Of a DNA stretch of 64,000 nucleotides, positions 18,811-64,000 are shown one piece after another (the stretch's first letter is position 1; the number at the start of each line of letters is the position of its first letter). Origin of the DNA: an uncultured Bacilli bacterium (lineage in GTDB: Bacteria; Bacillota_I; Bacilli_A; RFN20; CAG-449); NCBI GenBank assembly GCA_947591215.1, contig CANQCZ010000004.1:1770-65769 (forward strand), in the 5' to 3' direction. Made by a program: the position numbers and the translations under genes. A model generated the notes under the pieces. The model made no database searches. It saw only the letters and a program-made list of their open reading frames with translations, and was not told the DNA's origin.

Positions 18811-19734
18811 TCATTGATTTTTTTGCAAGAAACGATTTATCGAAGATGCCGCTAAAGCCCCATGTCCGCAAGCAACCACAATTTGATGCAATTTATTAGA
18901 TACTACATCACCGGCAGCAAAAAGTCCTGCTATTTTAGATTCAAGTGTATCATTGACACAAATATAACCTTCACTATCCAAAATATCTTTTTCTTGAATG
19001 AATTCCGTATTAGCCTCTGAACCGATATAGGTAAATATCGCTTGGCAATTTAATTCACGAACTTTTTTGGTGTGAACATTTTCGATAAGTAATTTTTCAA
19101 CGTGATTTTCGCCTTGAATTTCTTTAATTATAAAATATTCCAAAATTTCAATTTTTTCATTGTTTCTTACTTTGTCAATTAAAAATTTATCGGCGCGGAA
19201 ATTATCCGAACGATGTATTAATAAAACTTTTGAAGCAATCATTGATAAATACAAAGCTTCTTCAAACGCGGAATTGCCACCCCCGACGACTGCGACTATT
19301 TGATTTTGATAAAAGTTTCCATCGCATACCGCACAAGAAGACACTCCTTTACCGAAAAATTCTTTTTCTCCTTTAACACCGAGTTTTTTCTCCCTCGTTC
19401 CACTAGCAATTAAAACTGTTTTGCTTAGATACTCTCCTTTTGTACTTTGAACTACAAAAAGATTGTTGTCCTTTACTACCGAAACGATTTTTTCGGCTTT
19501 TAAGGTAATCTTATTGAATGATAATTGTTGATAAAATTTAAAAGCTAAATCGCCCCCGCTAATATGGTCAAAGCCCGGGTAATTTTCTACTTGATAAGTA
19601 AAATTAACTTTTCCACCGGGAACATTATCTTCGAAAATTAAAAAATTCAAACCGGCTCTTTTTAAATATATACCGGCAGTAATACCACTTGGTCCAGCAC
19701 CGATTACCAATGCATCATAAATCTTTTCCATCAA
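18811..19734 (-). CDS. trxB: thioredoxin-disulfide reductase
   Basis: GAGPSG FAD motif, redox centre CAVCDG, and a second dinucleotide fold VVGGGNSAFEEA. Confidence 0.9.
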   Translation of the reverse strand: MMEKIYDALVIGAGPSGITAGIYLKRAGLNFLIFEDNVPGGKVNFTYQVENYPGFDHISGGDLAFKFYQQLSFNKITLKAEKIVSVVKDNNLFVVQSTKGEYLSKTVLIASGTREKKLGVKGEKEFFGKGVSSCAVCDGNFYQNQIVAVVGGGNSAFEEALYLSMIASKVLLIHRSDNFRADKFLIDKVRNNEKIEILEYFIIKEIQGENHVEKLLIENVHTKKVRELNCQAIFTYIGSEANTEFIQEKDILDSEGYICVNDTLESKIAGLFAAGDVVSNKLHQIVVACGHGALAASSINRFLQKNQ

Positions 19735-20362
19735 GGATAACCTCCTTCAATTCTTTATAAGAGGAAATATATAATTGTGCTTCAGTTTCGATTTTTTTAA
19801 TTGACCAAATAACCAAGCCAAAATCGACACCCGCGTTAACCGCGCTTTCTTTATCGCTCAAATTATCTCCTATATATAAAGTATCTTCTTTATGACCATT
19901 TAATACATCGATCGCCTTTAAAATTCCTTGAGGATTCGGTTTTGGATAGTCTACATCATCAAGAGTAATCACAACATCAAAATATTTATCGAGATTAAAG
20001 CAAGATAAAGTTACCTTGGTGCTTTCTTTCATTTTTGAAGTGATGATTGCCAATTTAATTCCATTGCTTTTAAAAGCTTCTAACGTTTGATAAACTCCAT
20101 CATAAAGGATCGCGTAATGTGCGATGTTTTTTTTAGAAAAAGATACAAAGTATTCTATTGCCTTTTGAACTTTATCTTGAGGTAAGTATTTTGAAAAAGT
20201 GTCTTTCAATGTTGGTCCTAAAAAAGAAACCAATTCTCTAAGAGACAATTTATAATGTGGCAAAAATGCTTGAAAAGTATGGACAAAGGCATCGATTACC
20301 AATAAATCAGTATCGATTAAAGTACCATCTAAATCAAACAAAAGATTTTTATATTTCTTCAT
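19715..20362 (-). CDS. ppaX: HAD-family hydrolase (PpaX-like pyrophosphatase/phosphoglycolate phosphatase)
   Basis: Motif I LFDLDGTLIDT, motif II ITSK, motif IV YIGDNLSDKESA. The hprK-lgt-ppaX order matches Bacillus. Start at MKKYKNLLFD. Confidence 0.75.
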   Translation of the reverse strand: MKKYKNLLFDLDGTLIDTDLLVIDAFVHTFQAFLPHYKLSLRELVSFLGPTLKDTFSKYLPQDKVQKAIEYFVSFSKKNIAHYAILYDGVYQTLEAFKSNGIKLAIITSKMKESTKVTLSCFNLDKYFDVVITLDDVDYPKPNPQGILKAIDVLNGHKEDTLYIGDNLSDKESAVNAGVDFGLVIWSIKKIETEAQLYISSYKELKEVILDGKDL

Positions 20363-21266
20363 CTCGCTCTTTGATATATTTATTAAAATTTTCTTCAACC
20401 ATCTTTTGCTTCGGTTTTGCCACAAATTTATCATAAAGGTGACATCCGATAATCCCTAATATTCCACCGATTAAGAAAACCCAAGCCATCACAATAGAAG
20501 CCATAATTTTTTGCTGCGTTTCAGCATTTACTACTCCCATAATAAATTGATCATTTCGCATCGGTTCCATAATTATTCGTGTTAGTCCATACCATATTAA
20601 ATATGAACAAGCCATATCACCTGGAGCTTTAATCTTCTTTAATCCATAACCGATACCGAAATAAATAACGGCAAATCCGACTAAATTCGAGATAGCTTCA
20701 ATAAGGAACAACGGGACTGCAATTTGCCCTTGAACACATCCGGAATTAGGAATATTTGACATTTGATCAAGAATAAAGGATGGTAAGAAGCTCCACTCAC
20801 TACGACTCACACATTGTCCATATACTTCCTGATTAAAGAAATTACCGATTCTTCCGATTGCTTGAGCAACTAAAACTCCAGGAATTACCCAATCAACCGC
20901 TAAAAGCACAGGGAGATTTTTTCTACGATAATAAACAAAAAGAATCCCGACTGCAGCTCCTAAAAGCACACCGCCTTGAATCGCTAAACCGCCATTCCAA
21001 ATTTCGAAAATATCGGGGAAAGGATGCGCTGCAAATTCTTTTTGCCACTCAGCGATAACATACCAAATCCTCGCTCCGACAATGCCGCTTGGAAATGCGA
21101 TATAAAAGACACTTTCAAGAATTCTAAAATTGTAACCTTTCTTTTTTAAAGAATAAGCCGCAATAAAATATGCCGTAATTGCTCCAAGCAAAATAAAAAC
21201 AGCATAATAAGTAATATGTAACGAACCGATACTAATAATATCTTTTGGTAATGCTAATGTTTTCAT
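20349..21266 (-). CDS. lgt: prolipoprotein diacylglyceryl transferase
   Basis: Polytopic membrane protein with the Lgt signature GRIGNFFNQEVYG. Confidence 0.9.
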   Translation of the reverse strand: MKTLALPKDIISIGSLHITYYAVFILLGAITAYFIAAYSLKKKGYNFRILESVFYIAFPSGIVGARIWYVIAEWQKEFAAHPFPDIFEIWNGGLAIQGGVLLGAAVGILFVYYRRKNLPVLLAVDWVIPGVLVAQAIGRIGNFFNQEVYGQCVSRSEWSFLPSFILDQMSNIPNSGCVQGQIAVPLFLIEAISNLVGFAVIYFGIGYGLKKIKAPGDMACSYLIWYGLTRIIMEPMRNDQFIMGVVNAETQQKIMASIVMAWVFLIGGILGIIGCHLYDKFVAKPKQKMVEENFNKYIKERDEEI

Positions 21267-25357: not shown

Positions 25358-25434
25358 CGGGACGTAGCACAGCTTGGTAGTGCACTACCTTGGGGTGGTA
25401 GGGGTCGTGCGTTCAAATCGCATCGTTCCGACCA
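25358..25434 (+). tRNA. tRNA-Pro, anticodon read as GGG, CCA encoded
   Basis: Hand-folded cloverleaf: acceptor CGGGACG/CGTTCCG, D stem GCAC/GTGC, anticodon stem CTACC/GGTAG with loop TTGGGGT, T arm GTGCG-TTCAAAT-CGCAT, discriminator A plus CCA. Confidence 0.9.
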
Positions 25435-52415: not shown

Positions 52416-52723
52416 TTTCTCATTTAATCTATAATTATTTAAATCTTAAATAATATCAACGTGAAATCACCTTGTACTGACTAATCCGATAAGAGCTAAT
52501 ACTCCACTGACCCATAAAGATCATGGAGGATCTAGCAACTAAGCATATTATCTTTCTTAATTTTGATATATTCTTTTTGTATCAAGTTCCATGTCAACAC
52601 AAAGTATTTCTCGCCTAGAATACCTTGTTTTCAAATTTATATTTTAAGTTTACAAATCTTTCAAATATCATCAAACTCAAACTGCTTTTTCCATTTTAAA
52701 CTTCATAGAAATTTGAAATAGGT

Positions 52724-52766
52724 GCCAAAGCAAGACAAAGAAGTTGGTCACAAGTGTCACAACTTC
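52724..52766 (-). terminator. candidate terminator of the long minus-strand operon
   Basis: Minus strand: GAAGTTG-(13 nt)-CAACTTC followed by TTTGTCTTGCTTT, about 45 nt after the stop at 52811. A second imperfect hairpin (CGGG-ttt-CCCG core) lies at about 52775-52800. Confidence 0.4.
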
Positions 52767-52810
52767 GCCCCTCAACAAACGGGAAACCCGCTTTTGGAGG
52801 TAGAATCAAA

Positions 52811-54832
52811 TTAATCTTTCACTGAGATTTGGCTTTTAAAAGCGTTCCAAAGACGACTGCGTTTATATTGTTCCACTAAGCTTGAAGGAACTGTAAATTC
52901 AGCTTTTTCATCTATTGAATAAAATGCATTTGCACCAAATGGTATGACTCTATCGCAGTGAATCAAAATCTTTTTAAGCCAATGGCAATAGCGAAAAGCA
53001 TTCATTCCTATCTCGACAGTTTCTGCCGGCAATTCAATCGTCTCTAATTCGTCACAATATGCAAATGCCCAGTCGCCTATTCGGTTAACATTATTGAAAA
53101 TAATTGTTTTCAATGCGCTGTTGTTATAAAAACTCCACCTACCGAAATTTTTCACATCATTTAACTCAAGCATTTCCAAATACGGATTGTTCCGGCAAAA
53201 ATCATCGCATATATCGCCGTGCACAATTAACGTTTTTATTTGAGGACACTCACCTGAAAAATAATACGAGAGTTTACGGTTACCGGGAATATCCATCTGT
53301 TTCAATTTGATACAATTATAAAAGATTCCTTTACCTATGCTTGTGGACTTTGCAATAGAAACAGACCGCAAATCCGTCGCGTAAAACGCATAATCTCCGA
53401 TAGAATGTCCTATGAATTCAAAATCTTTAACAGCTGTTTTTCCAAAAGCCACAATTCCGATTTTTTGAAGATCATTCGGCACGACACATAGACTATGGCA
53501 ATTCCATAACGCTCCCTTTTCTGCATAAACCAATCCTTTCACATTTATAAGCTGCGCACAATTTGTCATGGCGCAAGGAGCAAAATTTTTTACAGCAATC
53601 TGCTTTAAGGAAGAACATCCGAACATGCCAAACTTGCCTATCGAATCTATGTCGAGATTTTCATCCAGCATTTTGCAATTGTAAAATGCAAACGGTGGGA
53701 CTGATTTGGGGATAAAATCGACATGTTTTAAGCTTGTACAATTGTAAAATATGCCCTCTGGAAAATCTATCTTCTTTCCAAATATCACTGATTCAACCTT
53801 TGTATTGGCAAAACAATATCCCGAAAGCATCTCTATACCATGCGGCAAGGTAACTTCCCGTTCGATACCTAAATATTTATATAATGTCTTGCCTAGAATG
53901 GCAAATGAGCCTTGATCTTTAAACCACTTTGTGTCGTACAAAGCACTGTTTCCAATATGCTCTACGCTTTCACCACCATGGATTAACTTAAGGTTTTTTG
54001 CCCCAAGGAAAGCGTGTTCGCCGATGAATTTCAAAGTATGTGGAAGATTTATTTCAACTAAACCACTACACTTTGAGAATGCGTAATCTCCGATCATCTC
54101 AATGCCATCGGGAATTAGTATTTCCGTCATTTCACTGCGATCATGAAATGCGCCACTTGCAATAACCTTTACCGGTACACCGTCGATCTTTGCCGGTATA
54201 ATATGCTTTTTTAAACTTTTCCCTTCTTTCGTCAATCCTTTGATCTCAATAATATCGCCTTTACGGTTATACTTAAACTCATGATAGATCCCAAAGGACT
54301 TAGTTTCATATTTAATGTTTGAAGCGTTTTTGGTCGACAGCACTACAATCTTACAAAATTCACATCTCTCGTCGTATATCTTTTCAAATATATACGGCGG
54401 AGTAGAAGATGAGCAAAGCAATTTGATATTAGGATACATTTTTCTCAACCGATTGGCAAATAAAAACCAATCGCCACACTCCTGAATCTCATTAACAACA
54501 AGATATGTAATTTCATGCCGTTCCATAATTGCCTTTTGAAAAACATCTAAAATATTCGCTTCTTGCAGAAACGGCAATTCGTAATCAAGATATAATATTT
54601 GTTCTTTTTCTATACCTCGCTGCAAAAGATCGCGGCAAATACGACCAAGCATATCTGTCTTACGCAGCCCCGTTTCCCCCACCAAAAAAACATAATTATT
54701 CTGTGCGTTATCAAAATATAGTTCTTGCACTTCATTGTAATCATACGCAAATGCTGGATCGGAAAAATCTGTGTCAGGTGCGTCTTCGAAAACGTCATGA
54801 TTTATAATATAATTGATAAATTTTTCTTTCAT
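52811..54832 (-). CDS. AAA_14-like P-loop NTPase domain (degenerate Walker motifs) fused to BspA-type leucine-rich repeats (LRR_5)
   Basis: Residues ~45-165, YVFLVGETGLRKTDM...ILYLDYE...YLVVNEIQECGDW...KLLCSSS, follow the AAA_14 layout. From residue ~210 to the end there are about 10 repeats of the form IP.gv..IG..AF..C..L. No signal peptide and no TM segment. Confidence 0.75.
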   Translation of the reverse strand: MKEKFINYIINHDVFEDAPDTDFSDPAFAYDYNEVQELYFDNAQNNYVFLVGETGLRKTDMLGRICRDLLQRGIEKEQILYLDYELPFLQEANILDVFQKAIMERHEITYLVVNEIQECGDWFLFANRLRKMYPNIKLLCSSSTPPYIFEKIYDERCEFCKIVVLSTKNASNIKYETKSFGIYHEFKYNRKGDIIEIKGLTKEGKSLKKHIIPAKIDGVPVKVIASGAFHDRSEMTEILIPDGIEMIGDYAFSKCSGLVEINLPHTLKFIGEHAFLGAKNLKLIHGGESVEHIGNSALYDTKWFKDQGSFAILGKTLYKYLGIEREVTLPHGIEMLSGYCFANTKVESVIFGKKIDFPEGIFYNCTSLKHVDFIPKSVPPFAFYNCKMLDENLDIDSIGKFGMFGCSSLKQIAVKNFAPCAMTNCAQLINVKGLVYAEKGALWNCHSLCVVPNDLQKIGIVAFGKTAVKDFEFIGHSIGDYAFYATDLRSVSIAKSTSIGKGIFYNCIKLKQMDIPGNRKLSYYFSGECPQIKTLIVHGDICDDFCRNNPYLEMLELNDVKNFGRWSFYNNSALKTIIFNNVNRIGDWAFAYCDELETIELPAETVEIGMNAFRYCHWLKKILIHCDRVIPFGANAFYSIDEKAEFTVPSSLVEQYKRSRLWNAFKSQISVKD

Positions 54833-55512
54833 TTTTGATTCTCTCCCAAGGTTAAAAGTCTATTGTATACGGTCGAAAATTTTCCAACATCTTTGTCCAC
54901 GTGATAATGTCCGAAATACCATTTACGATACTCAACCGTATCTTTGATTGTCTCTAAATAATCGTTCAAAATTCGTTCTTGCGGCACAAGATTGGCTCCT
55001 ATTCGTTCGGCGACTGAAGTCGGTGCAACATGGGTAAGAACATAATCTACACGATTGCCGCACTGTTTCAAATTGGTTATTCCTCTTTCATATTCCTGTT
55101 CATTTGGCATTTCTTGATCCCATACGGAAATCGGCGAGGTTCCGTCAAGTTTTTTTACCGAAAAGCCACCCCCGAAAACGAATATCTTTGTATTATCGAA
55201 TGAAAATATGCATCCTCTCATCAGTCGATAGATTTTATCGCTAATTTTTTGCGCTTTGCCACCAAAAAAATTCTGTTCCTCATATTGTTCCAGCAGGTCG
55301 AAATTCTCATGATTGCCATCCAAAAACAAAGTTATATTCGGCAAAGAGTTATAAAACTCCCTTACCTCCTTATGTTCGGTTTTACTCCAAACGATTCCAG
55401 CATCTCCGAGAATAATGAGATAATCATCTTTTTGCAAGGGTATATTTTGCAAGAGTCCTTTAAGATAAGGAAGTCTTATATGCCCATGAATATCCGAAGT
55501 TAAATAGATCAT
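54829..55512 (-). CDS. calcineurin-like metallophosphoesterase
   Basis: Motifs SDIHGH, LGDAGIVW, DGNHEN and THVAP. Confidence 0.8.
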   Translation of the reverse strand: MIYLTSDIHGHIRLPYLKGLLQNIPLQKDDYLIILGDAGIVWSKTEHKEVREFYNSLPNITLFLDGNHENFDLLEQYEEQNFFGGKAQKISDKIYRLMRGCIFSFDNTKIFVFGGGFSVKKLDGTSPISVWDQEMPNEQEYERGITNLKQCGNRVDYVLTHVAPTSVAERIGANLVPQERILNDYLETIKDTVEYRKWYFGHYHVDKDVGKFSTVYNRLLTLGENQK

Positions 55513-58145
55513 TTAACGACCTCCTTTATAAGAGATGTAGATGTGTGAGCAAAAGCATTTTCTCCAAATGTAACTCCTCGTTTATAAGTAATCCGGGCAA
55601 GAGCTTTATCATAAGCAAAGGCCTTTTCATCTACATTCTTCACGTTGCGCAAATCTATTTCACGTAAATAATACGCATCCGATAAAGCTCGAAAAGCAAT
55701 TTTCTCCGTTACGTCAGGCGCTGTATATTTTTCATTCTTCTTCCCGATTGCATATTGAAGTAATGTTTTTTTATCAGCAGTATAAAGGTTGCCGTCTTGT
55801 GATGCAAATGCCGCATTGTTATCCGATACCGATATCCACTTTAGGCGTTCACAAGAACCGAATGCATAAGTACCGATTTCAATGACATTCGACGGGATTG
55901 ATATTTCACTCAACAAATCGCAACCATGGAATGCCCACGCACCGATAAAGACGAGCGAATCGGGAAGTTCAATTACAAGCAGATTTTTGCAATCGTCAAA
56001 TGCGCTAGTCTCAATTTTCTTAACGGTGCACGGCAATATGACTTTTTCGATGTTCCTTGCATTTTGAAATGCGTTACGTCCGATTGTTTCAACTCCCTCA
56101 GGAACAGTATATACTTTTTCGGGGGAAGCAAGCGGATACCTTACAAGCGTTTTCTTGTCCTTAGAGAACAGCACCCCAGATTCCGTACAATAAAATTTGT
56201 TATCTTTCTCAACGAAGATTTTTTTAATGCTGCTCGAATAGAAACAAGTTGGATCGACAACTTTGACAGAAGCATTTACATATAACTTTCCGGCATAAGA
56301 ATTATTTGTGCCGATTTCTTTCAATTCATCATAATGAACGAATCTCAATTCATGGCTTTGCGTCAAAGCTTCCACGTCGATTCCATAAGCAAATAAATCA
56401 CGCATGGTACGTTCAGCATCTTGCTCTAAGGCTTTCAGCAGATATTCCTTTGCTTTTTCCAAATCTTTTTCCACGCCTACTCCGTTCAAAAAACAATATG
56501 CTATGTCTCCGGTTCCGTGCGAATAGTGGTTCTTTGACGCCATTTCAAAATATTCCATAGCCTTTTGCGCATCAGCTTTTACGCCGTATCCGTGCAAATA
56601 ATTTTGTCCAACATCGCGCATCGAATGAACATATCCAAGATCGGCGGATTTCTTATACCAATAAAAAGATTTCTCTTCATTCTTCTCTACGCCCTGTCCC
56701 ACAAGATACATATAACCAAGGTCACACATTGCTTCGAGATTTCCCAAATTGGCCGCTTCTAAATAATATCCGAAAGCTATGTCAAAATTTCGCACTTTGC
56801 CGAGCCCAAACGAATACATATCGCCGAGAAGTACTAAAAAATCCGCTTTTTTATTTTTCGCCTTGCGTTCTATCTCGTCTTTTATTTCTGCTACGATTGA
56901 TTGTGCTTTGGAAATATCTTGAGAAGCACCATTCCCTTCAAAGTAACCTAATGCATAGTAAAATGCGCCTTTAGGATTTCCAAGCTTGGCCGCTCTAAAG
57001 AAACAGATTTGCGATAATTCTTTGTGCCGATAAAATCTTTTGCTTCCGATAGAATATTCTTTTCCTCTTTTAATCCATTCCTCAGAATCGATATTCGAGT
57101 AAATCCCATCGAAAACTCCAACTAAATAGTGGTCATCAAACCAAGCACATTTACAAGGCTGCACACTACGTTCCAGTCTGGACAAAGTGTCGATTTTTTC
57201 TATCCAAAGTTCCTCCTTGAGCGGCAAATATTCAAGCAAGCCAAGTTGTGCTTCTTGCGTAATCATCTCAGACACTAGACATTTGATACCGACCGCCTGT
57301 GCCTCAATCGAAACTATCGATAAACCCTCATATAAAGACGGCAATAGCAATCCATATGATAACGACATGAGTTCTGTAATGTTGCTGTCAGGTGGTAAAA
57401 TCTTAATATTATTAAGTCCGTTACGCGAAATAAAACTCTCGATTTCTTGCTGTAAATGACCATGACCTACAAAAACAAACCCAATATCCGTTCTATCCCG
57501 CATATTCAAACACAGATTTAATAAAAATTCGATATTCTTTTGCTTCGCAAATCTTCCCACGAATAAAAAATATTTTTTGTTTGCATCTAATCCGTACTTT
57601 GCAAATTCTTTATTGTCCATGTCGAAGAATCGGGAATAATCTATTGCATTGTATATTGTTTCGCCATCACGTCCATATAGGAACTCTCTTGCCGCATCGG
57701 AGCAAGCGAGGCAATGCGTCGCATATTTTTTTACCATCCGTGCAGAAATTGCTTTTGCTATTCTCTTTCCTAAAGTCAAGCCACGTGGATTGGCTTGATG
57801 ACAGTGGGATATCCGAACCGGCACGTTTTCTTTATATGATTGCTTCAAGTACAATCCATTATTTGAAAAATAGTGCGAATGAACGGCAATCGGCTTCTCT
57901 TTTCTTATGATTTCTCTTATTTGTTTTGACTGCCGCAATGAGCGTATAAGTCCCCGTCCCTTAACGCATACATCATACACTTTCCCACCTAGTGATAAAA
58001 TCTCTTCTCGATAATGGTCGTTTCTCTTTGCCGTATTAATAAAAATAAATTGATACTCGGTATGCATTTTGCGATACAATGTCATAATAAAGGACGAAAT
58101 CCCGTTTATTCTCAAATTGCCACCTATTTGAATGACTTTTTTCAT
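55509..58145 (-). CDS. GT4-family glycosyltransferase fused to Sel1 repeats and BspA-type LRRs
   Basis: Residues 1-~340 form a GT-B fold with FLFVGRFAKQKN and YEGLSIVSIEAQAVG. Residues ~385-600 hold about 5 Sel1-like repeats (LGYMYLVGQGVEKNEEKSFYWYKKSADLG and similar). Residues ~640-878 hold LRR_5 repeats (VPEGVETIGRNAFQNARNIEKVILP...). No signal peptide. Confidence 0.75.
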   Translation of the reverse strand: MKKVIQIGGNLRINGISSFIMTLYRKMHTEYQFIFINTAKRNDHYREEILSLGGKVYDVCVKGRGLIRSLRQSKQIREIIRKEKPIAVHSHYFSNNGLYLKQSYKENVPVRISHCHQANPRGLTLGKRIAKAISARMVKKYATHCLACSDAAREFLYGRDGETIYNAIDYSRFFDMDNKEFAKYGLDANKKYFLFVGRFAKQKNIEFLLNLCLNMRDRTDIGFVFVGHGHLQQEIESFISRNGLNNIKILPPDSNITELMSLSYGLLLPSLYEGLSIVSIEAQAVGIKCLVSEMITQEAQLGLLEYLPLKEELWIEKIDTLSRLERSVQPCKCAWFDDHYLVGVFDGIYSNIDSEEWIKRGKEYSIGSKRFYRHKELSQICFFRAAKLGNPKGAFYYALGYFEGNGASQDISKAQSIVAEIKDEIERKAKNKKADFLVLLGDMYSFGLGKVRNFDIAFGYYLEAANLGNLEAMCDLGYMYLVGQGVEKNEEKSFYWYKKSADLGYVHSMRDVGQNYLHGYGVKADAQKAMEYFEMASKNHYSHGTGDIAYCFLNGVGVEKDLEKAKEYLLKALEQDAERTMRDLFAYGIDVEALTQSHELRFVHYDELKEIGTNNSYAGKLYVNASVKVVDPTCFYSSSIKKIFVEKDNKFYCTESGVLFSKDKKTLVRYPLASPEKVYTVPEGVETIGRNAFQNARNIEKVILPCTVKKIETSAFDDCKNLLVIELPDSLVFIGAWAFHGCDLLSEISIPSNVIEIGTYAFGSCERLKWISVSDNNAAFASQDGNLYTADKKTLLQYAIGKKNEKYTAPDVTEKIAFRALSDAYYLREIDLRNVKNVDEKAFAYDKALARITYKRGVTFGENAFAHTSTSLIKEVVK

Positions 58146-59806
58146 TTTCGAATTATCTCCGCTTTACAATTATTGAAGGTATTCGGAAGAATCTTTATAT
58201 GTTTCGGTACAATAACTCTTTTCAAGCCATGACATCCATCAAAACACCAATCGGCAATTTCTTCCACGCTTTCGGGAATCTCTATTTCTTCAAGCTCGAC
58301 GCATTCCGAAAATGCACTCCTGCCAAGAAAGCGGAGCCCCTTCGGCAGTACGATTTTTTTAAGTGTGTAGCAACCTGTAAAAGCACTTCTACCGATATTG
58401 ACTACGCCTTCCGGCAAAACAATATTTCCTTCTTTTACCGCCGTCGAGGGACAAAAAACCACCTCTTTCCCTGTGGCATCATATAAGATGCCGTACCGCT
58501 CCATATAATATGGGCTATGATTTTCGAGAACTACGTTTCTACAATTCGCAAACGGATTATAACCAATCTGTCTGACAGAGGCTGGAATTATAATTTTTTC
58601 TATCATATCGCAATTCCAAAAACAATTTCTCCCAATGGTCCTTACTGTTTCGGGGAGTTTTACAATTTTTACTCCCAATCCCATCGAATAATGCATACAA
58701 GTAGTAATATTTTTGTCATACAATACGCCATCGATATAATGAAAATATTCACTTTCATTTTTGAGTTTGATGTTACGACAATCCGAAAAAGCATTGTTTC
58801 CCATAAATGTCACATTCTTGGTTATGACAACAAGGCGGAGATTTACGCATTTGTAAAAGCTGTGCTTACCTATCCACGTTACGCTTTCTGGAATTCGGTA
58901 TTCCCAAGAAGGATTGCTTGCCGTATAATGAATCAAAAACTTCATTTCACGATCAAACAGAACTCCATCTTTCAGGACAAAATACACACTGTTGTTTTCT
59001 ATTTCAATATCTAGGCAACCCGCAAACGGATCATCTCCCATTTCATCGACACTAGCAGGAATATTTATTTTTTTCAGGTTTTTACAGTAAACAAAAGCAT
59101 CACCGCAAATACAAGTCACACTATCTGGCAAAATTACTTCCTTAATAGCAAGATTTTTCCAAAAAGCCCCCGTGCCTATGCTTGTAATTCCGTTCGGTAT
59201 CTTCACAACAGGAGCACTGCCGAGATATTTTATCAATTCACCATTTTTGACATAAAACTCTTTCTCGTATTCTTGTTCATCGTAATCAATAGAAAAAGTA
59301 TCAGGATACAATGGAGCTTTTTTTTCAAACAACCCTTTGGTAAATTTCTTATCCAACACATGGATTTCTGACTTAAAATCCACAAGGCCACCGGAAAGTT
59401 GTGAAGTGTAGAGACATTCATTCTTCCCGCTCGATCGATAGCCACTTATGAGTTTCTCATAATCTTTTCCCCACCCGGAAACATAAATTCCAATATATAA
59501 AATTTTTGTCTGCGGATAAGTAATAGCAATATCATAGCCATCTGAATTGACAAGCACGCAAGAAGAATCATATCCCTTCTTCAACAATCTATCTATCACT
59601 TCTAAAATTGAGAAATCTTTGTACGCACGCAACTCGTAACTCTCACCACGATATTCAAACCTCTGCTCCTCGGAATATATTGTAATCGCGCAATCCTTAT
59701 AACGATATTTAAAGATATCGGGCGCCACTTCAAGGTAACCCAATTTCCGATAGAGAATAATGTATTTCATGTCAATAAACAATGTGTCTTTATGTTTTTC
59801 AATCAT
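58142..59806 (-). CDS. unknown ~190-aa N-terminal domain fused to BspA-type LRRs
   Basis: The C-terminal ~360 aa are LRR_5 repeats (IPNGITSIGTGAFWKNLAIKEVILP, LPEGVVNIGRSAFTGCYTLKKIVLP). I do not recognise the N-domain. No signal peptide. Confidence 0.7.
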   Translation of the reverse strand: MIEKHKDTLFIDMKYIILYRKLGYLEVAPDIFKYRYKDCAITIYSEEQRFEYRGESYELRAYKDFSILEVIDRLLKKGYDSSCVLVNSDGYDIAITYPQTKILYIGIYVSGWGKDYEKLISGYRSSGKNECLYTSQLSGGLVDFKSEIHVLDKKFTKGLFEKKAPLYPDTFSIDYDEQEYEKEFYVKNGELIKYLGSAPVVKIPNGITSIGTGAFWKNLAIKEVILPDSVTCICGDAFVYCKNLKKINIPASVDEMGDDPFAGCLDIEIENNSVYFVLKDGVLFDREMKFLIHYTASNPSWEYRIPESVTWIGKHSFYKCVNLRLVVITKNVTFMGNNAFSDCRNIKLKNESEYFHYIDGVLYDKNITTCMHYSMGLGVKIVKLPETVRTIGRNCFWNCDMIEKIIIPASVRQIGYNPFANCRNVVLENHSPYYMERYGILYDATGKEVVFCPSTAVKEGNIVLPEGVVNIGRSAFTGCYTLKKIVLPKGLRFLGRSAFSECVELEEIEIPESVEEIADWCFDGCHGLKRVIVPKHIKILPNTFNNCKAEIIRK

Positions 59807-60383
59807 GGATAAATCCTCTCTTTATTAGTTCGCTTTTCATTTTGGTAACAACTTCTTGTTCAGTCAAATCGGTCGTATCTAAAACGATACCCGGCATCTT
59901 GTATTTGTTCATGGCATATTGCATTTTTTTATATGCAGAAGGAATCAATGCCACCTTTTTAAGGTCGGGATCGTGAAGATTACGAGAACGCAATCTTCGT
60001 TCCACAACGATCGGATCGGCATAAACCAAAAAGGTAAAATCCGGTGCCCCAATCGTTTGGAAAATAGCATCGAAAATATAATCAGTATTTTGATCCCCGC
60101 TCCAACAGTAATTGGATAAGATATGCCTGTCCGTAATGATGTTTTGGTTTGCAAATCTTTCATAAAGATAAATATTGCCAAGCCCGTAAAACCAAGCAGT
60201 AAAGGCTTTATTTGGGTTTTTATTGACCTCATCACGGATACGGATGTACTCATCGTTCTTGCCATCCTCGTTAAATAAAAAATGTAAAGGCTTCTCAATC
60301 AACTTGAATCCAAGCATTTCGGAAAGGTTCCTAGCAGCCGTACTCTTTCCGACACCATCTATTCCTTCTATTGCAATATGCAT
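59799..60383 (-). CDS. thymidylate-kinase-like / deoxynucleoside(-monophosphate) kinase family P-loop protein
   Basis: N-terminal IAIEGIDGVGKST P-loop, a DRH-like motif (ITDRHILS), and a size of about 190 aa. Confidence 0.7.
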   Translation of the reverse strand: MHIAIEGIDGVGKSTAARNLSEMLGFKLIEKPLHFLFNEDGKNDEYIRIRDEVNKNPNKAFTAWFYGLGNIYLYERFANQNIITDRHILSNYCWSGDQNTDYIFDAIFQTIGAPDFTFLVYADPIVVERRLRSRNLHDPDLKKVALIPSAYKKMQYAMNKYKMPGIVLDTTDLTEQEVVTKMKSELIKRGFIHD

Positions 60384-60392
60384 ATGTTCCTC

Positions 60393-62087
60393 CTAATTAC
60401 TCGTTCTGGCACGAACTTCATTTTTCTTGCCCGATGTAAAACCGTCTAAAATTTCAAGATAACCGCTAACCCGTCTGATATGCGTTACATTTTCACACCC
60501 GCAAATCGGGCACAGATCAAACACCCCGGTGGCATGACAATTGTTGCAACTGTCAAGCGGAAAATTGATGCCGAGATATCTTACCCCCGCTGCAACTGCA
60601 ATTTCAACAAGCTCTTTAAGTCCCTCGTCGTTGCCTATCGGTGCCTCATTTAATTCGATATATGAGATGCTCCCACCATTTGCATAGAGGTGGAACGGTC
60701 CTTCTTTTGTCAGCTTTTCTCTTGCGGAAAGCCCGCTATCTACATTAACATGAAACGAATTTGTATAAAAACCCTTATCAAAGATATCGATATTTGGAGA
60801 AAACATCTTCTTATCCATTTCCGAAAATCTACCGCTTATCAACTCTCCACTTGTAGCAAGCAAAGAAAAGTTCAAATTTAATTTATTTCTTTGTTCGTCG
60901 CAATAGTTTCTCATAAACTTTACAAAATCAATGGCAATACGATAGGATTCATCGTTGGCATAATACCTGCTGCCTGTTATAATCTCGACCATCTCCGAAA
61001 GTCCGATAAATCCGATTGAAAGAGTACCATGTATAAACACATTCTTCGGATCATCGAATGGCACACACCACAATTGTCTTGATCTGTTTACGGGAAACTC
61101 ATCTGCATCGGAAATACATACCTTATGATAGCGATCCACCAAAATTTCGGTAACCATATCCGCTATTTCGGACCACCTCTCTTTTACCTTTGCAATTTTA
61201 TGAACCCACTCAAGATTTGGAAAGTCCCGATCCACTTCAAGAGCAAGTCGAGGAAGATTGATGCTGATATTAGCGATGTTTCCTCTTCCAATTGCCGTTT
61301 TCTCTCCAAATAGATCGTCAACCACACGCGTGCGGCAACCCATTACAGAAAGCTTTTCGGGAGCGACTCCTTCATCGGACGCACAATCGCAAAGAAGATA
61401 TGTCGGAATCATCTTCTTAGCCGAACATAGTAGTGCTTTTTGGAATAAATCAAAGTTGCCGTCTCCCGGATACCTATTGATTCCTTTTACGACCTTAAAC
61501 ACGATATTTGGCTTAAAAGTTGTCGCTCCTACCTTTTCGAATTCATTGATAAGTGCATATGCGATGAACCTCGCGAATTTATTTTTTGCAAGTCCTATAT
61601 TAAGCGTTATGTAATAACTTGTCTGTCCCATTCTTGTATGGGTGTTGCTGCACCAAATAATAAAGTCCCCTATGCATTCGGAGATAATGGCTTCCGTATG
61701 TTTTGAGTGCTTAACGCCGAGTTTAAAAAAAATTGTTGAAAGGTCATTATCGAAATTTGCGAATGCCATCCCACCGGACTGCTCATTTCCCATATCGGCA
61801 AACAACGTTTTAAAATAGCCGAATACCCGTATGATTTTTCCCGTTTCCGATAATCCATCAAACAATTGATATGGAAAATTTTGTAATAGGTTAAATGTCA
61901 AACAATTATAAGTTTTTCCGTAAGCATCTAGGTCATGAATGTGAATGTACCCTTCCGTGTGAAGTTTGGACCATTCTACGGGCAAAGAATCCAAAATTTC
62001 TTTTTTAAACTCTTTTTCGCCTTTATGATACACATAACCTACATAACTTGAGCGATTCGCCGCATTATCATTTGAAACTTGTTTCAT
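60393..62087 (-). CDS. nrdD: anaerobic ribonucleoside-triphosphate reductase (class III, short form without ATP-cone)
   Basis: C-terminal Zn ribbon CNNCHATGVFDLCPICGC followed by the glycyl-radical motif RRVSGYL. Adjacent to the activase. Confidence 0.85.
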   Translation of the reverse strand: MKQVSNDNAANRSSYVGYVYHKGEKEFKKEILDSLPVEWSKLHTEGYIHIHDLDAYGKTYNCLTFNLLQNFPYQLFDGLSETGKIIRVFGYFKTLFADMGNEQSGGMAFANFDNDLSTIFFKLGVKHSKHTEAIISECIGDFIIWCSNTHTRMGQTSYYITLNIGLAKNKFARFIAYALINEFEKVGATTFKPNIVFKVVKGINRYPGDGNFDLFQKALLCSAKKMIPTYLLCDCASDEGVAPEKLSVMGCRTRVVDDLFGEKTAIGRGNIANISINLPRLALEVDRDFPNLEWVHKIAKVKERWSEIADMVTEILVDRYHKVCISDADEFPVNRSRQLWCVPFDDPKNVFIHGTLSIGFIGLSEMVEIITGSRYYANDESYRIAIDFVKFMRNYCDEQRNKLNLNFSLLATSGELISGRFSEMDKKMFSPNIDIFDKGFYTNSFHVNVDSGLSAREKLTKEGPFHLYANGGSISYIELNEAPIGNDEGLKELVEIAVAAGVRYLGINFPLDSCNNCHATGVFDLCPICGCENVTHIRRVSGYLEILDGFTSGKKNEVRARTSN

Positions 62088-63202
62088 TTTTTCTCCCTCA
62101 GATTAATAAATTTTTGATTCGAAGATCCCAAATATGGTCTTGTCGTTGTTTTGTACCTTTCGTCAAATGCACCGATTTTAACGTAATGCAATTTTGACAA
62201 TATTGCTTGTGGTATGTCGGGCATATCATAACCCGTGTACATACAAAAATCAAATTCAGGCAACGCTTCAATTAGATTTTCGATTGCCTTTGCTTGCAAA
62301 AGCGGTTCGCCTCCCGAAAGAGTGATTTTTTTATTGAACGCCGTTTTGCGTATAATCTCTTTCAATTCTCCGACCGAGTATCGCGTGCCGCTTTCAAGCG
62401 GCCAAGTAGATGGGTTGTGACAATTTTTACAATGCCGTTTGCATCCTTGCAAATATATCACTGTTCGTAGCCCCGGTCCATCCACAAGCGACTCATGCTT
62501 CGAAATGGCATTGACATACAGCATCGAACTTTCAAATACTTCTTTCAGACATTTTAAGTTCGGAAGAGCAAGCATCGCTTTACTCGACGGGTGTTCCGTT
62601 ATCAAAATCGGCGTCAGCCCCACTGCTTCCGCTCCCTCGCAATCCTTGTCGATCTTATTCCCTACAAAATAAATTTCCCGACTTGCTCCCATCCCGATCA
62701 ATTCAAGGACTGCAGCAAAAGCTCGTTCCGACGGCTTTCTGTATCCAATATCTGCGCTGGAAATTAATCCTACAAAAAACTTAGATAAATAAAAGGTATC
62801 TAGATATTTTTTCAGTGTTACTGCAGAGAAAATGCTATTGCTAAGTACCGCCATCTTGTAACCACGCTCTTTCAAATAAGAAAGCGTATCAACTGCACCC
62901 TCTGACACTCTTTCCTTTCGGCAACAGATAAATGCCTCCCATTCAATATCTGCATACGATTTGGCAAAATGCTTACCAGTTTTCGTTTCATAAAACTTTA
63001 ACTGATGGACAAAACTTGTCTCACGATTGGTTTTATCTCTATCGCTCATATATTGCGAACGATATTCGGAAGCCAAATCATATATCCGTTTCTTTGCTTC
63101 GCCGAGACGTTCGGCTATGAGATCTAAAACCATATTATAATCGAACTGCTCCGTTTGAAGTAACGTTCCGAATAAGTCAAATAAAATAACTTTATCACTC
63201 AT
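62084..63202 (-). CDS. nrdG: fusion protein: HAD-superfamily hydrolase domain plus anaerobic RNR activating radical-SAM protein
   Basis: Residues 1-~215 are HAD (ILFDLFGTLL, VLSNS, YRKPS, FVGNKIDKD). Residues ~227-372 are NrdG (DGPGLRTVIYLQGCKRHCKNCHNP, ITLSGGEPL, GSSNQKFINL). One uninterrupted frame. No SD precedes the internal Met at 62524. Confidence 0.8.
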   Translation of the reverse strand: MSDKVILFDLFGTLLQTEQFDYNMVLDLIAERLGEAKKRIYDLASEYRSQYMSDRDKTNRETSFVHQLKFYETKTGKHFAKSYADIEWEAFICCRKERVSEGAVDTLSYLKERGYKMAVLSNSIFSAVTLKKYLDTFYLSKFFVGLISSADIGYRKPSERAFAAVLELIGMGASREIYFVGNKIDKDCEGAEAVGLTPILITEHPSSKAMLALPNLKCLKEVFESSMLYVNAISKHESLVDGPGLRTVIYLQGCKRHCKNCHNPSTWPLESGTRYSVGELKEIIRKTAFNKKITLSGGEPLLQAKAIENLIEALPEFDFCMYTGYDMPDIPQAILSKLHYVKIGAFDERYKTTTRPYLGSSNQKFINLREKK

Positions 63203-63221
63203 ATTTGCTCCTTTTTCATGC

Positions 63222-63791
63222 TTATAAGTTCATCATCGTATCCTTTTGGTAATTTCGCATATTCCAATTTTTCACGATCGCTTCATTCATTTTTAAAACG
63301 GACGAAAACGGTATTCTTGTAAGTCTCTTCACTCTCTCGTCACTAAAATGAGTATCGCCTATATAATAGATTATACCTACACCAGATTCTTTTATCTCTT
63401 CAATTTGGCGCATGAAATCTCTTTCCAAAATCTTTGCTCTCTTTTGACGATATCGCAGATTTTTTTTGTCTTTTTCTTTCTCGGATGAAAGCAGATATTG
63501 ATCATCCTGTATCCGTTCGTCAAAGTTTGGGATTCTTCGCTGATCTTGTATATTGTGACAATGCAAATATTGATCTTTTTTGTTTTGTTCTTTTAACAGT
63601 CTGTACTCCGAATACGAAATGCAATTAACTTCCGCAATTGCGTCTTTGTGGTCATGCTTTACACGTCCAAATTTACGAACACGTGTAGCGGCTTCGCTTC
63701 CGTTTTCAGCCATGACAGGAAAAACTATATAAATACACTTGCTTCTTCCAACATGCCCACATTTAGCTTTTACAGAATAATATTTTTTCAT
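63222..63791 (-). CDS. hypothetical KCGHVG-motif protein ending in a truncated metallophosphoesterase N-terminus
   Basis: Residues 1-~90 (KAKCGHVGRSK...RVKHDHKDAI) resemble small uncharacterised proteins I associate with Firmicute mobile DNA. Residues ~140-189, IIYYIGDTHFSDERVKRLTRIPFSSVLKMNEAIVKNWN, form motif I of a phosphoesterase. The ORF stops before motif II. Confidence 0.55.
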   Translation of the reverse strand: MKKYYSVKAKCGHVGRSKCIYIVFPVMAENGSEAATRVRKFGRVKHDHKDAIAEVNCISYSEYRLLKEQNKKDQYLHCHNIQDQRRIPNFDERIQDDQYLLSSEKEKDKKNLRYRQKRAKILERDFMRQIEEIKESGVGIIYYIGDTHFSDERVKRLTRIPFSSVLKMNEAIVKNWNMRNYQKDTMMNL

Positions 63792-63817
63792 TTCTTTTAT
63801 TCTCCTTTTCTACATTA

Positions 63818-63826
63818 ACTATAGCA
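63818..63826 (-). promoter_or_regulatory. extended -10 element (TGCTATAGT) upstream of the operon
   Basis: Minus strand TGcTATAGT, 27 nt upstream of the ATG at 63791, with AAAGGAGA as RBS. No good -35 element. Confidence 0.35.
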
Positions 63827-63909
63827 TCGCCCACATAAATAAAAAATTGCAATTCGAAAAAATTTTTGTTACCAAATATGCATTTTTTATTGATTTTTGC
63901 CGTATAAAT

Positions 63910-63928
63910 TGTTACCATATAGGTAACA
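63910..63928. promoter_or_regulatory. perfect 7-5-7 palindrome TGTTACC-ATATA-GGTAACA (candidate operator)
   Basis: Perfect inverted repeat 13 nt upstream of a plus-strand ATG (63941). A TGTTACCA half-site recurs at 63867-63874. Confidence 0.45.
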
Positions 63929-63940
63929 CAGAGGAAATAT

Positions 63941-64000
63941 ATGAAAGAATTTTGGGTCGAAAATGAACATATTAATTTGAATCTCACTTCTTTAGCGCAA
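63941..64000 (+). CDS. start of a divergent gene (MKEFWVENEHINLNLTSLAQ...), cut by the window edge
   Basis: The ATG is preceded by AGAGGAAA at 6-nt spacing. Only 20 codons are visible. LNLTSLAQ could be the start of an HTH, but this is unproven. Confidence 0.3.
   Translation, partial: MKEFWVENEHINLNLTSLAQ

Follow-up and report, generated by a model that had tools for sequence, protein, structure and literature searches.

We analyzed a 64,000-nt window of DNA from an uncultured Bacilli bacterium (GenBank assembly GCA_947591215.1, contig CANQCZ010000004.1), which ends in a block of eight genes that places the class III ribonucleotide reductase (RNR) NrdD and its activase NrdG next to a nucleotide kinase and three leucine-rich repeat (LRR) proteins (Table 1). 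An earlier reading of the sequence alone (hereafter the original prediction) had placed all eight genes on the minus strand, from 63791 down to 52811, and its coordinates and junctions were all reproduced. Four junctions are ATGA overlaps (54829-32, 55509-12, 58142-45, and 62084-87), and ATGATTGA at 59799-806 is a fifth start/stop overlap; the two remaining junctions are a 9-nt gap, GAGGAACAT, with AGGAGG just before it, and a 19-nt gap containing AAGGAG. Together, the eight genes make up a single, tightly packed unit that resembles an operon. Promoter-like matches on both strands (50 observed versus 38.3 expected from shuffles) were uninformative, and terminator-like sites were not enriched (6 observed versus 8.6 expected); these counts are compatible with one transcription unit without proving it. 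Signal peptides and transmembrane segments are absent from all eight proteins (maximum 19-residue Kyte-Doolittle score <1.5). The domain calls of the original prediction were right throughout, namely, NrdD, a HAD domain fused to NrdG, a kinase of the thymidylate kinase family, three LRR_5 proteins, a family 4 glycosyltransferase (GT4) with Sel1 repeats, a Metallophos enzyme, and a degenerate AAA_14 domain.

Table 1. Features of the eight-gene block and its borders, in window positions
Feature	Position	Strand	Evidence or remark
WYL-domain regulator, 317 aa, first 20 codons (MKEFWVENEHINLNLTSLAQ)	63941..64000	+	divergent; continues past window; matches start of L001:6845-7798(-)
Perfect palindrome TGTTACC-N5-GGTAACA	63910..63928		in 149-nt intergenic region between WYL gene and operon
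Half-site TGTTACC	63867-63873		same intergenic region
KCG_N small protein (aa 1-135, nt 63387-63791) with in-frame putative phosphoesterase stub of ~50 aa (nt 63222-63386)	63222..63791	-	family motifs; phrog_547 match of C-terminus
HAD-like domain fused to NrdG radical-SAM activase	62084..63202	-	Pfam Hydrolase/HAD_2 + Fer4_12/Radical_SAM
NrdD, short class III ribonucleotide reductase without ATP-cone	60393..62087	-	PF13597, 1e-101
Thymidylate-kinase-family (deoxy)nucleotide kinase	59799..60383	-	PF02223, 48.4 bits (cut-off 27); phrog_761, 3e-19
X-LRR: predicted inactivated type IIG/IIB nuclease-like X domain (aa 1-185, nt 59252-59806) + BspA-type LRR_5	58142..59806	-	LRR_5, 4e-58
GT4 glycosyltransferase-Sel1 repeats-LRR_5	55509..58145	-	Pfam Glyco_transf_4 + Glycos_transf_1, Sel1, LRR_5
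Metallophosphoesterase, 227 aa	54829..55512	-	PF00149; phrog_1649, 1e-30
Pseudo-ATPase (degenerate AAA_14)-LRR_5	52811..54832	-	AAA_14, 1.7e-8; LRR_5, 1e-56
3' non-coding spacer, 395 nt, gene-free	52416..52810		separates operon end from convergent gene

The original prediction also described the block as richer in GC than neighboring genes, on the basis of five counts in 60-nt lines that proved exact (23, 26, 34, 19, and 18 of 60). For bulk GC the difference is modest, at 0.34 to 0.40 in the block versus 0.30 to 0.39 over the first 34 kb, and the ribosomal-protein region is equal or higher. The distinction is clear in the GC content of third codon positions (GC3) and in codon usage, neither of which is uniform across the window. 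The block has a mean GC3 of 0.364 (0.326-0.395), above the value of 0.276 for a set of 32 other genes (Mann-Whitney p = 1.7e-6) as well as the 0.326 for 19 genes of the ribosomal region (p = 0.004). G-ending and rare codons were several-fold commoner in the block, and the codon fractions shifted strongly relative to other genes (block/others: CTG 0.09/0.01; CGG 0.13/0.03; ATA 0.31/0.14; GAG 0.31/0.13), with TTA falling to 0.21 from 0.52. As a consequence of this composition, of the 16 antisense ORFs (open reading frames) in the window that have 80 aa or more, 10 fall inside the block, where they reach 165 aa versus 93 aa elsewhere, as had been noted before. These data support the view that the block is compositionally foreign.

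To judge from its catalytic motifs, NrdD appears to be intact. In an alignment with the NrdD proteins of T4 and Prevotella copri, the active-site cysteines (T4 C79 and C290) and Asn311 are kept within the motifs YNCLT, MGCRT, and GRGNI, and the glycyl radical site RRVSGYL and the zinc site CNNC...CPIC align as well. Its PF13597 score lies far above the cut-off, and its score against the TIGR02487 equivalog is a marginal miss (320.2 bits; cut-off 326.35). NrdG, whose gene overlaps nrdD by ATGA, carries the CxxxCxxC motif as CKRHCKNC and scores 96.5 bits against TIGR02491, under the cut-off of 126.1 bits. In the HAD-like domain fused to it, motif I reads DLF[DG]T and the D+2 residue is missing; the fusion is confined to the Coproplasma-like clade. 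At metagenome locus L124, NrdG and NrdD are themselves fused into a protein of 724 aa (30-2204), and a separate HAD gene (2045-2887) lies between NrdD and the kinase; this arrangement may be an intermediate towards the fusion found in the window. In the kinase, the P-loop GIDGVGKST, the DRH motif, and the LID arginines R130 and R134 are all invariant. It falls outside the Tmk equivalog TIGR00041 (42 versus a cut-off of 83), and a profile search of structures matched Tmk, the deoxynucleoside and deoxyguanosine kinases (dNK/dGK), and YorR of SPbeta.

The protein that follows the kinase, X-LRR, joins an N-terminal domain, X, to BspA-type repeats. X had no Pfam match and no match in a sequence-profile search of the PDB, and an exhaustive search of 1.84 billion representative proteins gave 33 relatives, of which the full-length ones are approximately 550 to 564 or 822 aa. 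A confident AF2 model of X (pLDDT 86.2, pTM 0.81) was most similar in Foldseek to the type IIB enzyme BsaXI, in its N-terminal nuclease region (probability 1.0, E = 5.6e-3); tRNA-splicing endonucleases ranked next. A hidden Markov model (HMM) of X matched, with E values of about 1e-12 to 1e-24, the N-termini of large proteins from viral contigs that contain HSDR_N_2, N6_Mtase/Eco57I, and Methylase_S. This is the classic architecture of single-chain type IIG restriction enzymes. In a joint alignment, the type IIG-like enzymes show E...D...ECK; the X-LRR family retains E69 and mostly D95, has VSG, VAA, AEG, CEQ, CYE, and similar triplets in place of ECK, and lacks the GGQLFxY segment. The fold match, the HMM link, and the loss of ECK/ExK together indicate that X is probably a catalytically dead type IIG/IIB restriction-nuclease domain. 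The window protein holds X and LRR_5 alone; its relatives add a beta-class methyltransferase and never Methylase_S. X-LRR, with or without the methyltransferase, is a derivative of restriction-modification (RM) systems that has been exapted, and it is cytoplasmic.

To follow the block in other genomes, loci were collected by a search with NrdD that kept one genome per species and returned 35 loci (L numbers below denote these and metagenomic loci). The related loci all come from metagenome-assembled genomes (MAGs) or metagenomes, so their record labels may be wrong; one locus with the full arrangement was binned as Fibrobacteraceae. The full eight-gene order was present in L006, from a rabbit-gut Clostridia MAG whose NrdD is 90% identical to that of the window, and in L007-L015, from records of 'Candidatus Coproplasma' or uncultured Clostridia (NrdD 69-73% identical); nine further eight-gene copies were found in metagenomes (L066-L074). 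Two distinct full blocks occur in a single MAG (L007 and L008, on CAMWPZ01 contigs 1 and 38), which means that either the block is truly duplicated or the bin mixes two related species. Relative to L006, the ratio of nonsynonymous to synonymous substitution rates (dN/dS) was 0.07 to 0.16 for the seven genes compared (NrdD, 0.086; the first gene was left out as it is cut at the L006 contig end) and 0.10 to 0.18 for the three LRR domains. Purifying selection acts on every gene compared, and X-LRR is conserved within the clade about as well as NrdD (66-88% versus 69-90%). The flanking genes differ among these species, with the exception of the WYL gene, and six contigs of the window species that carry a flanking gene all contained the block where they were long enough. 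The original prediction had proposed a mobile-element remnant; the full arrangement in about 10 species-level relatives and the purifying selection on every gene compared show that the block is not one.

Outside the window clade, the gene order is [KCG_N]-NrdG-NrdD-[small phosphoesterase, phrog_547]-kinase-X-LRR-methyltransferase. According to the records, the hosts include Borkfalkiaceae, Christensenellales, Mollicutes/Bacilli MAGs, Coprobacillus CAG:826, Brachyspira catarrhinii, and a Methanocorpusculum archaeon. Pairwise identities of NrdD, the kinase, and X-LRR correlate with each other at 0.86 to 0.95, indicating co-divergence. The linkage was then assessed from the side of X: metagenome contigs were searched with the X-domain alignment alone, and 80 of 172 relatives were kept, with loci counted only where their contig reaches far enough. 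Upstream of X, we found the kinase in 76/76 loci, NrdD in 66/66, NrdG in 63/63, and KCG_N in 46/55. Downstream of X, a methyltransferase was present in 57 of the 65 loci and a GT4/Sel1 module in the other eight (8/65); a locus with neither did not occur (0/65). The invariant core of the cassette is NrdG, NrdD, the kinase, and X-LRR, and X-LRR was found solely beside RNR and kinase genes. The association of RNR and LRR genes is closer than the original prediction had recognized: X-LRR is obligately linked to NrdG, NrdD, and the kinase across bacteria and an archaeon. A related NrdDG pair without accessory genes occurs in Brachyspira (L035), which, with X-LRR never found without NrdDG, implies that X-LRR depends on the RNR and not the reverse. 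We found no paper in the full-text literature that links NrdD or nrdDG to LRR or methyltransferase partners.

The position 3' of X-LRR is thus filled in two ways, by a methyltransferase elsewhere and by GT4-Sel1-LRR, the phosphoesterase, and the pseudo-ATPase-LRR in the window clade. The methyltransferase is encoded by an ORF of its own (~280 aa) or forms, in RF39-like Bacilli, the C-terminal part of an X-LRR lengthened to 814 to 830 aa; it belongs to PF01555 (N6_N4_Mtase, E = 1e-30 to 1e-40), is type III Mod-like, and has intact DPPY and FAGSGT motifs in 11/11 sequences examined. Some loci of the window type (L070 and L071) additionally encode an LRR-methyltransferase of 715 aa, which lies upstream in the opposite orientation (L070:1584-3731, minus strand) and whose methyltransferase part is 74% identical to the RF39 type; the two solutions can therefore coexist. 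In the window clade, the glycosyltransferase EX7E motif (EGLSIVSIE) is conserved across all orthologs checked, as are the metal-binding motifs DxH, GD, GNHE, and GHxH of the metallophosphoesterase. The AAA_14 protein has GE[TS]GLRK[KT] as Walker A and NEIQ as Walker B in 8/8 orthologs and, with both motifs degenerate in all of them, is a conserved pseudo-ATPase. Approximately 45 aa precede its P-loop domain, and no effector domain is fused to it. Homologs of this domain are rare, and the few found have a metallophosphoesterase, LRR_5, or glycosyltransferase partner, either as a neighbor or in the same polypeptide. The LRR_5 matches of the three LRR proteins have E values of 1e-56, 4e-30, and 4e-58. 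In a divergent version of the module (L075), Sel1-LRR lacks the GT4 domain. The window block represents the elaborated, clade-specific form of a cassette that is widespread and has been transferred horizontally; in this lineage, NrdG gained the HAD domain and the ancestral small phosphoesterase decayed.

The decay of the phosphoesterase can be followed in the first gene. Its N-terminal part belongs to a family of 131 to 158 aa with invariant KCGHVG and RVK motifs, here called KCG_N, for which we found no Pfam match, annotation, PDB sequence match, or relative on viral contigs. In Foldseek, a confident AF2 model (pLDDT 89.7) gave only weak matches, namely, to ribosomal proteins of the eL20/LX type and to some unnamed phage proteins. 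The small metallophosphoesterase gene is intact in L006 (L006:69-593), and ~350 nt of it are deleted in the window species; a 5-nt indel (TATTA) relative to strains of the same species (L062-65; L062:10350-10610) separates the fusion of 189 aa from an unfused protein of 141 aa. The C-terminal ~50 aa of the window protein are thus a vestigial stub of the deleted gene. KCG_N homologs also occur away from nrd operons, for example in an element with Rep, Mob, and serine recombinase genes (L043:1-16396), near genes for a 719-aa Sel1 protein, an FtsH-like AAA protease, and AAA_14-DUF4143 proteins, and between a DnaJ-like gene and rplU/rpmA (L041:7491-9318).

Upstream of the block and divergent from it, the window ends within a gene for a WYL regulator, which matched the Pfam WYL family and the PADLOC WYL model (6e-17); its orthologs in L007-9 have WYL and WCX domains. 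In L007, L008, and L009, an exact copy of the palindrome occupies the corresponding position, with the WYL gene on one side and the first cassette gene on the other; the WYL proteins of these loci are only 44% identical to that of the window. This conservation across three other species-level loci makes the palindrome a candidate operator of the WYL regulator. A WYL gene also lies upstream of the cassette in L033, L106, and L131, and an HTH_3 protein takes its place in other clades. As a check, the original prediction had proposed to look for flanking att repeats or an integrase beyond nt 64000. The sequence past nt 64000 continues with the WYL regulator and then HydABC-type hydrogenase genes, without an integrase, and no att-like repeats of at least 11 nt were found between the two borders of the block, the far side being taken from L001. 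Likewise, tRNA genes were absent near the cassette in eight loci. At the other end, a weak hairpin, GCGGGTTTCCCGT, directly follows the operon stop codon, with a T-rich tail in which the T run is interrupted; the first ~107 nt of the spacer are 89% identical to the region 3' of the L006 ortholog. The spacer has no Rfam match, and a scan of the whole window gave none at the gathering threshold. Elsewhere in the window, the sole tRNA is tRNA-Pro(GGG) (25358-25434), and two ORFs on the same strand (19715-20434 and 20349-21266) overlap by 86 nt, so that translation of the downstream ORF (19715-20434) probably begins 3' of its listed start.

A horizontal origin, which the original prediction had suggested, is reasonable given the foreign composition, the mobility of the cassette family, and its frequent location in defence islands. 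The GC3 of the cassette exceeds that of the flanks in the window (0.364 versus 0.276), L015 (0.41 versus 0.285), L007 (0.42 versus 0.32), and L019 (0.395 versus 0.316), and in Methanocorpusculum (L036) the cassette is a sharp low-GC island of ~6.4 kb (GC3 0.31 versus 0.54). The cassette has been transferred among Clostridia, Bacilli, spirochaetes, and a methanogen. Its neighbors elsewhere include DruE of Druantia (1141 bits in L022; a second DruE in L106), two DUF4238 proteins, a DEDDh exonuclease, serine recombinases, the type I RM protein HsdR, a DdmD-like helicase, HEC-05/GmrSD (611 bits, L007), and an AbiD-like protein with a helix-turn-helix (HTH) protein. DruE and a conserved pair, made up of a DUF4238 protein and an unannotated protein of ~270 aa, recur just upstream (L022:14-8348, L106:2-4123, and many of L078-L145); as this recurrence spans RF39-like and Christensenellales-like loci, the conserved neighborhood may exceed the cassette.

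A phage origin would make the block cargo or a degraded prophage module for nucleotide metabolism, one that serves phage replication and is comparable to the dNTP (deoxynucleoside triphosphate) synthesis genes of T4 or to bnrdEF-yorR-yorS of SPbeta. All the enzymes have PHROG counterparts, the kinase profile matches SPbeta YorR, serine recombinases lie nearby in some loci, and copies of the cassette are present on the IMG/VR contig L045 and in the GenBank record 'phage NatCom_17901' (PV036423.1; L052/L053). In NatCom_17901, however, the cassette and chromosomal-type flanks lie at 44.5 to 57 kb, past the structural genes and two serine recombinase genes; the GC of this region is 0.40 to 0.49 versus ~0.53, its flanks are syntenic with chromosomal loci, and there is no terminal repeat. 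The drop in GC and the synteny indicate that the cassette region there is probably host flank, and we rejected this record as proof of phage carriage. Furthermore, the nearest NrdD of an isolated phage is only ~30% identical, no structural, replication, or integrase genes adjoin the block in the window genome, and the arrangement is stable across species. We therefore consider a phage origin of this kind very unlikely.

The defence-island setting in several lineages suggests a second possibility, in which the LRR proteins would be intracellular sensors like the NLRs (nucleotide-binding LRR proteins) and the phosphoesterase, the glycosyltransferase, or the RNR would be the effector of an antiphage system, for example in abortive infection brought about by collapse of the nucleotide pool. 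The regulator is of the kind associated with defence systems (PMC9122601, PMC11662680), and X and the methyltransferase descend from RM systems. The RNR lacks an ATP-cone and hence that form of feedback control, and weak PADLOC similarities were found to PDC-S01, PDC-S10, and VakA. On the other hand, the block matches no known system, its nuclease domain is predicted to be dead, and it has no recognizable death effector. The NTPase-plus-repeat sensor of the original prediction does not fit the data either, because the NTPase motifs are degenerate in all eight orthologs examined, no effector domain is present, and the LRR domains are as conserved as NrdD, with diversifying selection not seen. 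Antiphage defence of this form is thus improbable. As the original prediction had noted, the gene mix fits no described operon, and it matches no PADLOC system either; an undescribed, conflict-flavored module is a reasonable reading in view of this and of the frequent defence-island setting. Two further schemes were rejected: DNA hypermodification similar to glucosylation of hydroxymethylcytosine in T4, because genes for a hydroxymethylase or a thymidylate-synthase-like enzyme are missing and the block in L007 adjoins a GmrSD-like enzyme, and RNA repair of the Pnkp/Hen1 type, because a ligase is missing, the kinase belongs to the Tmk/dNK type, and the methyltransferase belongs to the DNA Mod type.

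The closest competitor to the explanation that we favor is a housekeeping operon for anaerobic dNTP synthesis, in which NrdDG would be the main or only RNR and the kinase, the HAD domain, and the phosphoesterase would tune dNTP pools; we regard this as possible but rather unlikely. To the same limited degree, X-LRR could be an RNR accessory that substitutes for the ATP-cone or tethers the enzyme to the replisome, with the methyltransferase or glycosyltransferase as co-transcribed passengers. The fully intact NrdD and NrdG motifs, the strong purifying selection throughout, the presence of the block in all same-species contigs seen, and the native composition in RF39-like and Brachyspira hosts are all in line with housekeeping, and the one-way dependence of X-LRR on NrdDG is expected of an accessory subunit. 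RNR genes are, moreover, classically inducible by DNA damage, which fits a WYL regulator that senses single-stranded DNA (ssDNA). Against this stand the Methanocorpusculum island, which has not ameliorated and implies acquisition on top of an existing RNR, the foreign codon usage in several hosts including that of the window, and the variation of flanks between close relatives. The cassette also recurs beside Druantia, RM, GmrSD, and Abi genes and recombinases, and two lineage-specific modifying modules in one slot are hard to see as passengers.

Our preferred explanation, which we put forward tentatively, is that the block is an accessory, inducible dNTP-supply unit in which LRR scaffolds of RM origin couple the RNR and kinase to a modifying enzyme in a response to conflict or damage. 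The WYL repressor, or an HTH repressor in other clades, probably keeps the unit off until signals of ssDNA, DNA damage, or infection arise. Once expressed, the unit would act as an accessory module for dNTP supply. The LRR proteins would be conserved scaffolds or adaptors rather than fast-evolving sensors, and they would tie the RNR/kinase pair to an enzyme that modifies macromolecules, namely, the methyltransferase elsewhere and the glycosyltransferase with the phosphoesterase in the window. The role would most likely lie in genome conflict (defence or counter-defence) or in a damage response, and not in basal DNA synthesis. Several observations count against this explanation. No strain of the window species without the block was found among six contigs from few samples, and the MAG loci may contain binning errors. 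The composition of the cassette is native in RF39-like hosts, L010, and Brachyspira, and in hosts with small genomes its NrdD may be the only RNR, which would make the unit essential. The defence-island context amounts to guilt by association, DNA-damage regulons too are controlled by WYL regulators, and the eight proteins gave no system match in PADLOC.

A narrower version centers the conflict on the RNR itself: the RM-derived LRR proteins, with their methyltransferase or glycosyltransferase/phosphoesterase partners, would detect or mark nucleic acid and, upon derepression by way of the WYL regulator, would direct the feedback-insensitive RNR and the kinase to remodel nucleotide pools, either by raising dNTPs for repair or counter-defence or by draining nucleoside triphosphates (NTPs) to abort infection. 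We think this unlikely; if true, it would be the first immune or counter-immune module built on a ribonucleotide reductase, and one common to bacteria and archaea. In textbooks, class III RNR operons are two-gene units. What is new here is an nrdDG operon with an obligate accessory family, in which the RNR part is a member of class III and the remainder fits no described system: this RNR subfamily almost always, with the exception in Brachyspira, brings with it a kinase, a previously unrecognized LRR family with a putatively dead nuclease domain, and a methyltransferase or glycosyltransferase module. If the accessory proteins regulate or localize the reductase, they would represent a new mode of RNR control for enzymes without an ATP-cone, and if the unit acts in genome conflict, it would connect the dNTP synthesis of gut anaerobes with epigenetic marking or with defence. 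The block also provides a clean case of cytoplasmic BspA-type LRR proteins with a conserved, testable set of partners, as well as a small pair of WYL regulator and candidate operator for studies of regulation in uncultured gut Clostridia.

Compared with the class III RNR operons of T4, E. coli, and P. copri, the window shares the catalytic motifs of NrdD and NrdG and the adjacent, overlapping genes. It differs in the short NrdD without an ATP-cone, the NCBIfam scores just below cut-off, and the HAD-fused NrdG, and this NrdD subfamily differs in the kinase and the LRR protein that nearly always come after NrdDG (L035 excepted). The phage dNTP modules of T4 and SPbeta (bnrdEF-yorR-yorS) likewise combine an RNR with a dNMP or deoxynucleoside kinase and a nucleotidase or phosphoesterase, often with a DNA methyltransferase, whereas the cassette is chromosomal and stably inherited within clades, has a host-type WYL or HTH regulator, and always contains X-LRR. 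BREX/Pgl systems offer analogous parts, that is, an RM-derived methyltransferase without a nuclease, a phosphoesterase, a kinase (PglW), an ATPase, a small protein in the first gene, and a WYL regulator of the BrxR type, and both BREX/Pgl and the cassette are found in defence islands. However, PADLOC detected no homologs of PglX, PglZ, BrxC/PglY, BrxL, BrxA, or PglW among the block proteins; the cassette kinase acts on nucleotides, as its family suggests, whereas PglW is a protein kinase, and BREX has neither an RNR nor LRR proteins. We take the resemblances to BREX/Pgl and to phage dNTP modules to be analogies without homology. More broadly, PADLOC-DB v2 gave only partial, generic matches to the block proteins (PDC-S01, PDC-S10, VakA/PDC-M51B, and pVip through the radical-SAM core).

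The relation to RM enzymes is one of descent. X is homologous to the N-terminal PD-(D/E)xK nuclease domain of type IIG/IIB enzymes such as BsaXI and those with the HSDR_N_2-N6_Mtase/Eco57I-Methylase_S architecture; it lacks the catalytic ExK, has a segment deleted, and carries LRR_5 in place of the linker and target-recognition parts. The methyltransferase of type IIG enzymes is of the gamma class, whereas that of the cassette is of the beta class and, in the other lineages, shares the DPPY and FxGxG motifs with type III Mod proteins. Unlike type III RM systems, the cassette has no Res or nuclease partner, and the window has no methyltransferase at all. Among repeat proteins, the pseudo-ATPase-LRR resembles NLR-like sensors (Avs/AVAST and bNACHT) in having a cytoplasmic P-loop-type domain followed by repeats; it differs in its degenerate Walker A/B motifs, in being AAA_14 and not STAND, in the absence of a fused effector, and in its slowly evolving repeats, and its only PADLOC match is a weak one to PDC-S01. 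The LRR_5 family is shared with BspA-type surface adhesins (Tannerella BspA and HupY/LrrG), but the LRR proteins of the block have no signal peptide, anchor, or transmembrane segment, are fused to domains derived from intracellular enzymes, and are encoded in an operon for nucleotide metabolism. Finally, the regulator resembles the wHTH-WYL-WCX proteins of the BrxR/CapW type, so far as is known from sequence, in its WYL domain, its divergent orientation, and an intergenic palindrome kept in four species-level loci, with the WCX domain present in the L007 ortholog.

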